Below, piece by piece: positions 41,491 through 41,906 of a stretch of 64,000 nucleotides of DNA. The stretch is from the NCBI GenBank assembly GCA_963719945.1, contig CAVRDX010000004.1, positions 64,001 to 128,000 on the forward strand, in the 5' to 3' direction. The position numbers and the translations under genes were made by a program. The stretch's first letter is position 1. Each line of letters begins with the position of its first letter. The notes beneath the pieces were generated by a model. The model saw only the letters and a program-made list of their open reading frames with translations, was not told the origin of the DNA and searched no databases. Source of the DNA: an uncultured Thermoplasmata archaeon. Lineage in GTDB: Archaea; Thermoplasmatota; Thermoplasmata; UBA10834.

Positions 41491-41906
41491 AACACCGTAA
41501 ATGGTCTGCTGCATCCCATCCTGATTTTCGGCGTTTTTTCTGTTGATTTTCTCTTAAATGGAGCCTGCATATATAAAATCTTTGAGAATACTATCTGGCT
41601 ACGACAAAAAACCCCCCTTTGTTTCCATTGCAGCATATCGCCGATTCACTCAATCGATTTCCACTCGAAGAATCGGCAGGTGTCGATGAGGCAGATTATG
41701 ACCAATGATGGGATCAATGGCATAAGGTGAGCTGGAAGCTTCGAATCGAAGAAAATAGCAGCCGATTGACTGTGGCCAGAAGCTCTTGTCGGATACCATG
41801 AATTGTCTTGTCAATCAAAGGCTTTATACCGATTGGTCGTTTTGTAGCATCGGTATCAGATGGCGACTAGAAAGAAAATCGATTCTCCACCGGAAATGAA
41901 GGGGGT
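41491..41906. promoter_or_regulatory. candidate archaeal replication origin (ORB elements plus AT-rich tract)
   Basis: Minus-strand TGCAATGGAAACAAAGGGGGGT (41611-41632) and plus-strand TCCACCGGAAATGAAGGGGGT (41886-41906) resemble the ORB consensus; AT-rich tract at about 41524-41595. Confidence 0.55.

Follow-up and report, generated by a model that had tools for sequence, protein, structure and literature searches.

Whether a chromosomal replication origin can stand beside the gyrase genes of an archaeon, in a stretch of DNA lacking any orc1/cdc6 gene, is the question raised by the gap between the divergent genes gyrB and thiC (398 bp) in an uncultured Thermoplasmata archaeon. The window analysed, that is, the whole stretch of 64,000 nucleotides, corresponds to G000:C4:64001-128000, where G000 is the assembly (four contigs, 1.78 Mb, 87% complete) and C4 the contig concerned. 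The initial annotation, made from the letters of the window, had proposed here a candidate oriC with origin recognition boxes (ORBs). Our analysis showed that two full ORBs in inverted orientation, designated A1 and A2, and an inner mini-ORB have been conserved within one family, and that a canonical origin, oriC1, lies 44 kb away. The best explanation appears to be a selected Orc1-1 binding module that arose in place in the ancestor of this family; that it works as an auxiliary origin is given a probability of roughly 40%.

Identification of the ORBs

A search pattern (CA...GAAA..AAGGGG) was derived from the euryarchaeal ORB consensus in the literature. When the complete 1.78-Mb assembly was scanned with it in both orientations, three matches were obtained: A1, A2, and one upstream of orc1-1. 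Full ORB matches in the assembly numbered only four, namely A1, A2 and two at oriC1, the hflX-orc1 origin; the fourth, TCCAGTGGAAATGCAGGGGGG, was located at C4:148531-148551. In a position weight matrix (PWM) scan these four sites scored 30.6-33.8 bits and the next best site scored 17.4. The matrix was trained on the same four sites; therefore, the count with the untrained pattern was considered as the independent test. As a control, the pattern read backwards gave mostly 0 and at most 3 matches per strand in 41 genomes. For a pattern of 17 specified bases the expectation was ~2e-4 in 3.5 Mb, and two copies 253 bp apart were observed. The concern that equally good matches might be scattered through the genome was thus not borne out, and the identity of the boxes as ORBs was supported by both scans and by their conservation in the family. 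A1 on the minus strand and A2 on the plus strand provide the at least two full inverted consensus ORBs that characterize an ORB-type origin, and binding of Orc1 to them is judged very likely.

All four strings quoted in the initial annotation were recovered in place. The G-string end of A1 was 25 bp from the B recognition element (BRE) and 31 bp from the TATA box of gyrB; A2 occupied +26 to +46 from the thiC ATG, and TCCACTCGAAG was present at 41660-41670, inside the mini-ORB. The fourth string, a degenerate box that had been taken as the opposing partner of A1 (41491 in the window), was common to the three closest relatives only (G005, G006, and G010) and could not be aligned in the other 16, so it did not hold as a conserved element. 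A weak TCCAT..GATT at the gyrB start codon was also tried as the opposing box and was rejected, being accounted for by the ATG-GAA coding sequence.

Conservation in the family and beyond

Forty relatives and G000 were searched with TCCANNNGAAANNAAGGGG, allowing up to 1 mismatch. Most of the family genomes contained about four matches, arranged as two divergent (-)...(+) pairs with start-to-start separations of ~270 bp (short pair) and ~1440 bp (long pair). Wherever both pairs were on one contig, a distance of 41-49 kb separated them. The short-pair locus was examined in 19 relatives, which represent four genera, and consisted of gyrA, gyrB, ORB(-), and thiC with ORB(+) at codon 9, followed by a Yip1-like gene and then a gene with a DnaA core; the complete gene order was the same in 19/19, and two further family genomes fitted the arrangement by their coordinates.

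A1 was found at the same place in 19/19 relatives with 0-2 mismatches to the relaxed pattern, its G-string being lost in G018. A2 had no more than 1 mismatch in 20/20 genomes, and the mini-ORB core TTCCAnnnGAAA was kept in 19/20 aligned sequences. Alignment of the gap showed the following succession of conserved blocks: the gyrB start; GCATCCCATCC; TTCGGCG(T/C)TTTT; a near-invariant block TATATAAA..CTTTGAGAATAC..CTGGCT; ORB(-); the mini-ORB core; a TCGGCAnnTGCCGA-type palindrome; ~130 bases that could not be aligned; CAATCAAAGGCTTTATAC; the thiC ATG; and ORB(+). The conservation in relatives on which the proposal had been made to depend was thus confirmed for the full pair, the mini-ORB and the synteny.

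Among 40 genomes of 23 other families of the class, only one marginal match was found upstream of gyrB. In families f2 and f6, gyrB and thiC are back to back but have no boxes, and ThiC begins in the usual way, with ...TPE(I/M)E... or a motif derived from this. Because the boxes are missing in other families, including the two with the same gene adjacency, the module was considered as an innovation of one family.

DNA-level constraint on the box inside thiC

The initial annotation had cautioned that A2 overlaps the ThiC codons PEMK, which might be conserved for protein reasons; the evidence ran the other way. In 20 genomes the peptide over A2 varied (PPEMKG, PQEMKG, PLEMKG, PVEIKG, PVEIEG, and PVEMKG), while the TCCA, GAAA and GGGG of the box never changed. 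Third bases were then compared over the first 80 thiC codons, of which 33 encode a conserved degenerate amino acid, with variation counted within the majority amino acid. The third base was invariant in 6/33 codons, comprising 4/4 codons of the ORB (10, 12, 14, and 15) versus 2/29 outside the box (hypergeometric figure ~4e-4, our own calculation). Since the amino acids vary and the ORB bases, synonymous third positions included, are fixed, the box is not a by-product of the PEMK codons. These comparisons indicate that A2 is kept at the DNA level and not for protein reasons.

Spacer and promoters

Across 20 genomes the full ORBs were separated by 243-256 bp, the range narrowing to 250-256 bp when one genome is set aside (19/20); box spacing at oriC1 of the same family was comparably rigid. 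The G+C content of the spacer ranged from 0.45 to 0.68 in the 20 genomes, the central bins averaged 0.66-0.69, and the centre was unalignable. Three candidate contents of the spacer were considered. A structured RNA, as a reason for the fixed length, gave no signal (mean z -0.55, both strands, 20 genomes); no open reading frame (ORF) for a small protein was conserved in strand or frame; and cmscan of 40500-43000 with E up to 1 gave no match to the thiamine pyrophosphate riboswitch (RF00059) or to any Rfam family.

AT-rich troughs were observed at 41546-41585 (gyrB BRE/TATA) and 41806-41845 (thiC BRE/TATA). The gyrB BRE/TATA shares the TCAAAG + TTTATA layout with the thiC promoter and is the bin of lowest G+C (0.30) in 19 genomes; the tract 41524-41600 has 32.5% G+C. 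Because the trough coincides with the gyrB BRE/TATA, the AT-rich tract that had been read as an origin element is the conserved gyrB promoter, with a trough of ~40 bp and no conserved opposing box. With the promoters predicted from consensus, A1 stands beside a core promoter and A2 in an early transcribed region, as boxes of the operator type do.

The canonical origin oriC1

Only two genes with a Cdc6_C domain were found, both on C4 (C4:150110-151480 and C4:218349-219509; hits at C4:151127 and C4:218382). The statement that no orc1/cdc6 is present was therefore correct for the window and incorrect for the neighbourhood, the two genes being located to the right of the gyrB/thiC locus at distances of 44 kb and 113 kb. 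An adjacent orc1/cdc6 gene is usual, not obligatory, at origins of this type. OriC1 (C4:148531-150208, outside the window) has the arrangement hflX-ORBs-orc1 with four ORBs. The 427-aa gene between its long ORB pair encodes an HflX-type GTPase; an hflX-type gene is likewise described as flanking oriC1 in haloarchaea (PMC4010727).

Alignment of oriC1 from seven family members gave the order hflX start, 111-119 bp, ORB-b(+), 164-167 bp at 0.39-0.52 G+C, ORB-c(-), 13-14 bp, ORB-d(+), 36-38 bp, and a conserved ATG at C4:150245; ORB-a(-) sits at the 3' end of hflX. The interval of 164-167 bp between ORB-b and ORB-c looks like it holds the orc1 promoter. The ATG at C4:150245, 135 bp downstream of the start of the longest ORF, is probably the true orc1-1 start, in which case the orc1 leader would contain both ORB-c and ORB-d. 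Other families of the class also have ORBs next to orc1, hflX and a DUF3198 gene.

The gyrB module was also compared with oriC1 as a possible segmental duplication. The best local alignments were the boxes themselves, with scores within the shuffled range; as nothing was shared beyond the boxes, the module is not a copy of oriC1. An ORB-like sequence with a 3-base deletion in the GAAA part, ACAGTGGTGAAGGGGGGTTT, was noticed at G000:C4:220073-220092, ~560 bp upstream of orc1-2, and could represent the remnant of a box beside the second orc1/cdc6 paralog.

Replication-polarity skew

Raw cumulative GC, RY (purine-pyrimidine) and MK (amino-keto) skews gave broad plateaus only. In G000 the raw curves had a trough on contig C1 (516-545 kb) and peaked broadly on C4, over 92-124 kb; in G018, a closed genome of 1,975,906 bp, they had a trough at ~555-563 kb and a plateau at 1.40-1.65 Mb containing both ORB clusters. 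The troughs of both genomes (for G018, ~557 kb) are terminus-like, and a second raw MK maximum of G018, at 1,653 kb, matches no orc1 gene. Gene orientation gave no origin marker, with 50% of genes per strand in both replication arms of G018.

In this family, the replication strand bias is the A-T skew at third codon positions (AT3 skew), not GC skew or gene orientation. After correction for gene orientation, the AT3 skew of G018 had its maximum at 1,452,839, between the gyrB locus (1,434.8 kb) and oriC1 (1,482.5 kb). In G020 the rise ended at 466-486 kb (gyrB locus 471.5 kb, oriC1 521 kb). In G000 the slope flattened at ~110 kb (gyrB locus 105.7 kb) and became negative after ~160 kb (oriC1 149.9 kb).

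A codon-usage classifier was applied to the same three genomes; its training regions lay outside the test interval, and gene orientation was corrected for. For G020 the best single switch was at 460 kb, and oriC1 alone was worse by 4.8 units; for G018 the range of a single switch was 1,426-1,508 kb, which spans both loci. The level between the two loci was lower than the level to the left in all three genomes, and the slope dropped at the gyrB locus. Adding a switch at the gyrB locus to the one at oriC1 gained 2.5, 2.3, and 4.8 units, with a sum of 9.6 on 3 degrees of freedom; this corresponds to about p = 0.02 in our own chi-square reading and is model-dependent.

These results place the polarity switch of three genomes between the two ORB clusters, in the neighbourhood that the initial annotation had pointed to: at oriC1 in G000, near the gyrB locus in G020, and at either of the two in G018. 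The skew shows that oriC1 is the main origin in G000. The gyrB/thiC locus was accordingly rejected as the main oriC of the chromosome, given a canonical origin 44 kb away that fits the G000 switch far better; a minor or lineage-dependent contribution of the gyrB locus to initiation is possible but unproven. Inversions symmetric about an origin were sought as well, and because C4 was fully collinear with 1.343-1.760 Mb of G018, the rearrangement test was uninformative.

Features of the locus and neighbouring genes

The coordinates of the features are listed in Table 1.

Table 1. Features of the gyrB/thiC locus, in positions of the window
Feature	Position	Strand	Remarks
gyrA	36961-39543	-	directly after gyrB
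gyrB	39554-41461	-	Pfam DNA_gyraseB, Toprim, HATPase_c, DNA_topoisoIV; start 41461 from alignment of relatives
Degenerate box AACACCGTAAATGG	41491-41504	+	in gyrB leader; not part of the feature
GCATCCCATCC (GGATGGGATGC on gyrB strand)	41511-41521	-	near-invariant, gyrB leader
gyrB BRE/TATA, minus-strand reading TCAAAGATTTTATATA	41570-41585	-	near-invariant alignment block; assigned from archaeal BRE/TATA consensus
CTGGCT	41595-41600		conserved, between ORB A1 and gyrB promoter
Full ORB A1, TGCAATGGAAACAAAGGGGGGT (reverse complement)	41611-41632	-	G-string end faces gyrB promoter
Spacer, 253 bp	41633-41885		between the full ORBs; holds thiC promoter and first 8 thiC codons
Mini-ORB TTCCACTCGAAGA	41659-41671	+	back to back with ORB A1, 26 bp inward within the full-ORB pair
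Palindrome, TCGGCAnnTGCCGA-type (TCGGCAGGTGTCGA in G000)	41673-41686		abuts mini-ORB where the G-string would stand; conserved
thiC BRE/TATA CAATCAAAGGCTTTATAC	41812-41829	+	~30 nt before ATG 41860; near-invariant block
thiC (radical SAM HMP-P synthase)	41860-43125	+	Pfam ThiC_Rad_SAM E = 3e-186, aligned from residue 7
Full ORB A2, TCCACCGGAAATGAAGGGGGT	41886-41906	+	overprinted on thiC codons 9-16; G-string points into thiC

The thiC ATG was invariant in 20 genomes. Several short motifs of the gap were conserved in addition to the boxes. CTGGC(T/A) was also conserved in the AT-richer core of oriC1 (C4:150053-150058) and might serve both loci as an accessory motif, comparable to the ucm of Sulfolobus origins; it is too short to judge. 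The motif GGATGGGATGC was exact in 17/19 family sequences covering the position, and CATCCCATCC occurred in family f2 too; a leader peptide starting at GGATGGGATGC was rejected, ORF lengths and frames not being conserved. The arms of the palindrome changed symmetrically among relatives (GGC/GCC versus GTC/GAC), and a third copy of its half-site, CGCCGAT, was present at 41639-41645. The palindrome looks like a site for some dimeric DNA-binding protein.

An 809-codon ORF at 44052-46481 of the window (+), with a probable true start at ~44340, carries a DnaA-type AAA+ domain III (Pfam Bac_DnaA E = 5e-48; DnaA of B. subtilis, 8BTG, E = 2e-57 over residues 411-667). Against TIGR00362 it scored 270 bits, under the cut-off. 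The protein is without DnaA domain IV, and its C-terminal end is DUF835. ARAGORN gave no tRNA in 43000-45000 of the window, although a gene with a non-canonical intron might escape it. Matches to this DnaA-core gene were found in 48/81 genomes of the class, and it was 3-10 kb from gyrB in families f1, f2, and f8. In a collection of species-representative genomes, the best GyrB matches beyond the family were from Chloroflexota (Thermomicrobiales and others) with 59-63% identity, in keeping with the bacterial ancestry known for archaeal gyrase. The bacterial-style neighbourhood described in the initial annotation was thus confirmed as gene order, with the DnaA-core gene, thiC, gyrB and gyrA all inside 9 kb, but no evidence was found that this order bears on initiation.

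Polarity of the boxes

In the literature searched, only indirect statements were found on ORB polarity relative to the DNA unwinding element (DUE). A review describes the winged-helix and lid domains of Orc1 as facing each other across the DUE (PMC6742236), and the G-string is described as being read by the AAA+ domain (PMC3936714). For the mutagenesis of Haloarcula oriC1, CCCCCC is listed at ORB I and GGGGGGGG at ORB II (PMC3936714). Together these statements imply that the G-strings point outward, as in the gyrB-thiC pair. Whichever polarity holds, the gyrB locus lacks one feature of a canonical origin: the DUE between the boxes, or a conserved partner across the AT-rich tract.

Possible functions of the module

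The proposed module consists of two full inverted ORBs with outward G-strings, ~253 bp apart, and an inner mini-ORB, set across the divergent gyrB/thiC promoters. The two full boxes would be occupied by Orc1-1 monomers turned with the winged-helix side inward, the arrangement of known origins, and these monomers would recruit MCM to the DNA between the boxes. The locus would then fire as an auxiliary origin of lower efficiency, 44-49 kb from the hflX-orc1 origin, and with the same occupancy the initiator would stand immediately upstream of the gyrase promoter and over the opening codons of thiC. The fixed spacing and inverted orientation point to one nucleoprotein complex over both boxes and fit an origin-like assembly better than two operators. 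In Sulfolobus, two inverted ORBs are described as each required for origin firing (PMC12141716).

Several points weigh against the auxiliary origin. No AT-rich DUE was found between the inverted boxes, where the sole troughs are the two promoter TATA regions, ~40 bp wide, and A1 is degenerate in several relatives. In G000, the classifier placed the best single switch at 152-162 kb, the gyrB locus alone was rejected by 22-31 units, and adding a gyrB-locus switch to oriC1 gained only 1.7-2.5 units. The GC-rich spacer and the G000 skew argue against an efficient origin. At oriC1 the AT-richer core of 165 bp is enclosed by the G-string ends of ORB-b and ORB-c, the opposite polarity to the gyrB-thiC pair, and the published ORB polarity rests on text, not on reference sequences. 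Two origins 44 kb apart in a 2-Mb chromosome bring little benefit. In the general view, additional archaeal origins come in with captured elements that carry an initiator gene, and the gyrB/thiC locus has no similarity to oriC1 beyond the boxes. A more specific form of the origin reading is put forward tentatively: an origin not captured but built from scratch by point mutation in a promoter region and in thiC, beside a bacterial-derived gyrase operon, giving a second Orc1-1-dependent origin 44-49 kb from oriC1, with a fixed GC-rich spacer replacing the unwinding element and with relative use differing between genera.

In the first alternative, Orc1 would act as a transcription factor with no replication start: upstream of the gyrB BRE/TATA it would tune gyrase to the level or nucleotide state of the initiator, and on early thiC it would block elongation. 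A1 has a fixed place immediately upstream of a conserved BRE/TATA, and A2 follows closely on the thiC start; ORBs c and d of oriC1, between the apparent orc1 promoter and the conserved ATG, have an autoregulation-like position; the boxes arose in place by point changes, as is usual for operators; and the skew switch of G000 is at oriC1. Precedents have been described in the DNA-damage regulator Orc1-2 of Sulfolobus (PMC9738581) and in DnaA as a transcription factor (PMC8203912). However, independent operators do not account for a 253-bp spacing held across an unalignable spacer, the best-conserved box is in thiC, which has no known link to replication, with the gyrB-side box more degenerate, and the 40 genomes of 23 other families run gyrB without such boxes. 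Promoter control was considered somewhat less probable than the auxiliary origin.

A cluster that neither fires nor regulates is unlikely. It would be a high-affinity sink or remodelling site for Orc1, like datA of E. coli for DnaA, or a satellite cluster of the Pyrococcus dp1 type. The absence of a DUE suits a site that does not fire, and the distance of 41-49 kb from oriC1 is roughly constant on a fully collinear segment; a sink, however, needs neither inverted orientation nor fixed spacing, and the skew slope drops at the gyrB locus in three genomes. The Pyrococcus satellite cluster is reportedly 1-2 kb from oriC. Pyrococcus Cdc6/Orc1 is described as binding its second, in-gene ORB cluster in vivo with an affinity comparable to oriC, but that cluster is within the Cdc6-bound region around oriC (PMC1904270), whereas gyrB/thiC is 44 kb from oriC1.

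Chance or protein-driven look-alikes without Orc1-related function are highly improbable and for practical purposes refuted: the ancestral ThiC motif TPE(I/M)E already gives CCN-GAR-AT, but two copies 253 bp apart stand against ~2e-4 expected in 3.5 Mb, synonymous sites are fixed while amino acids change, and the boxes are conserved in four genera. The other three readings, auxiliary origin, promoter control and accessory cluster or sink, are not mutually exclusive.

Comparison with known systems

The locus resembles the oriC1-type origins of Sulfolobus, Haloarcula/Haloferax and Methanomassiliicoccales in its consensus (TCCA-N3-GAAA-N2-AAGGGG), its inverted full pair, its mini-ORB, and the promoters inside the region. 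The arrangement is ORB3-DUE-ORB2 in Sulfolobus oriC1, and in Haloarcula/Haloferax oriC1 lies between a GTP-binding protein gene and orc1. At gyrB/thiC, in contrast, the initiator gene is 44 kb off, the spacer is GC-rich without a DUE, one box is in a coding sequence, and oriC1 exists separately. An inverted ORB pair of 'Ca. M. intestinalis' is reported to be 256 bp apart (PMC4153887), against 253 bp at gyrB/thiC. For Methanomassiliicoccales, the same paper reports ORBs around orc1/cdc6.1 as well as lone boxes in the vicinity of ftsZ and of nifH/nifE, and no box at gyrB (PMC4153887).

The dp1 cluster of Pyrococcus/Thermococcales (ORB3 and mini-ORBs; Matsunaga et al., 2007, PMC1904270) is likewise a second cluster, partly in a coding gene and conserved among relatives; A2 is an ORB inside a coding gene that is conserved among relatives as well. 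The dp1 cluster is reported to be bound by Cdc6/Orc1 in vivo, its role being still unknown (PMC1904270). The dp1 gene is next to orc1, whereas the gyrB/thiC cluster is 44-49 kb off, beside gyrase, with two full inverted boxes at a fixed distance. A satellite lies within the origin locus, a few kb from oriC/orc1; the gyrB/thiC locus is 41-49 kb from oriC1.

Origins unlinked from orc1 have an AT-rich core, and some are sole or far from others, whereas gyrB/thiC has a canonical origin 44 kb away and is a candidate only. Aeropyrum pernix oriC2 is an origin of this unlinked kind. In Nitrosopumilus maritimus (origin mapping by Pelve et al., 2013, as given in PMC4153887) ORB-type sites are described with the initiator encoded elsewhere, which is the likeness to gyrB/thiC. 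Where initiators act as transcription factors, as with bacterial DnaA boxes and the Sulfolobus Orc1-2 damage regulon, boxes are beside or just downstream of promoters, as at gyrB/thiC; the motif used by Sulfolobus Orc1-2, however, is one of its own and not the ORB.

ORB-type origins unlinked from orc1 and ORB clusters inside genes have already been described. In the literature searched, there was no ORB-dependent control of gyrase or thiC, no pair of full boxes at a gyrase promoter, no thiC-overprinted box with DNA-level selection, no GC-rich spacer of fixed length, and no in-place origin of such boxes within one family.

Biological significance

If the auxiliary origin is real, multiple origins would have been reached by a route other than element capture, through a second cluster that evolved where it stands, relies on the resident initiator and is overprinted on a coding sequence. 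If the locus does not fire, it would provide the first comparative evidence known to us of ORB-bound Orc1 at a gyrase promoter, and would tie the initiator to the control of DNA supercoiling, as bacteria show through their dnaA-gyrB neighbourhood. The locus is a sharply defined substrate of 300 bp, with natural variants in ~20 genomes, for box orientation and spacing in Orc1-MCM assembly.

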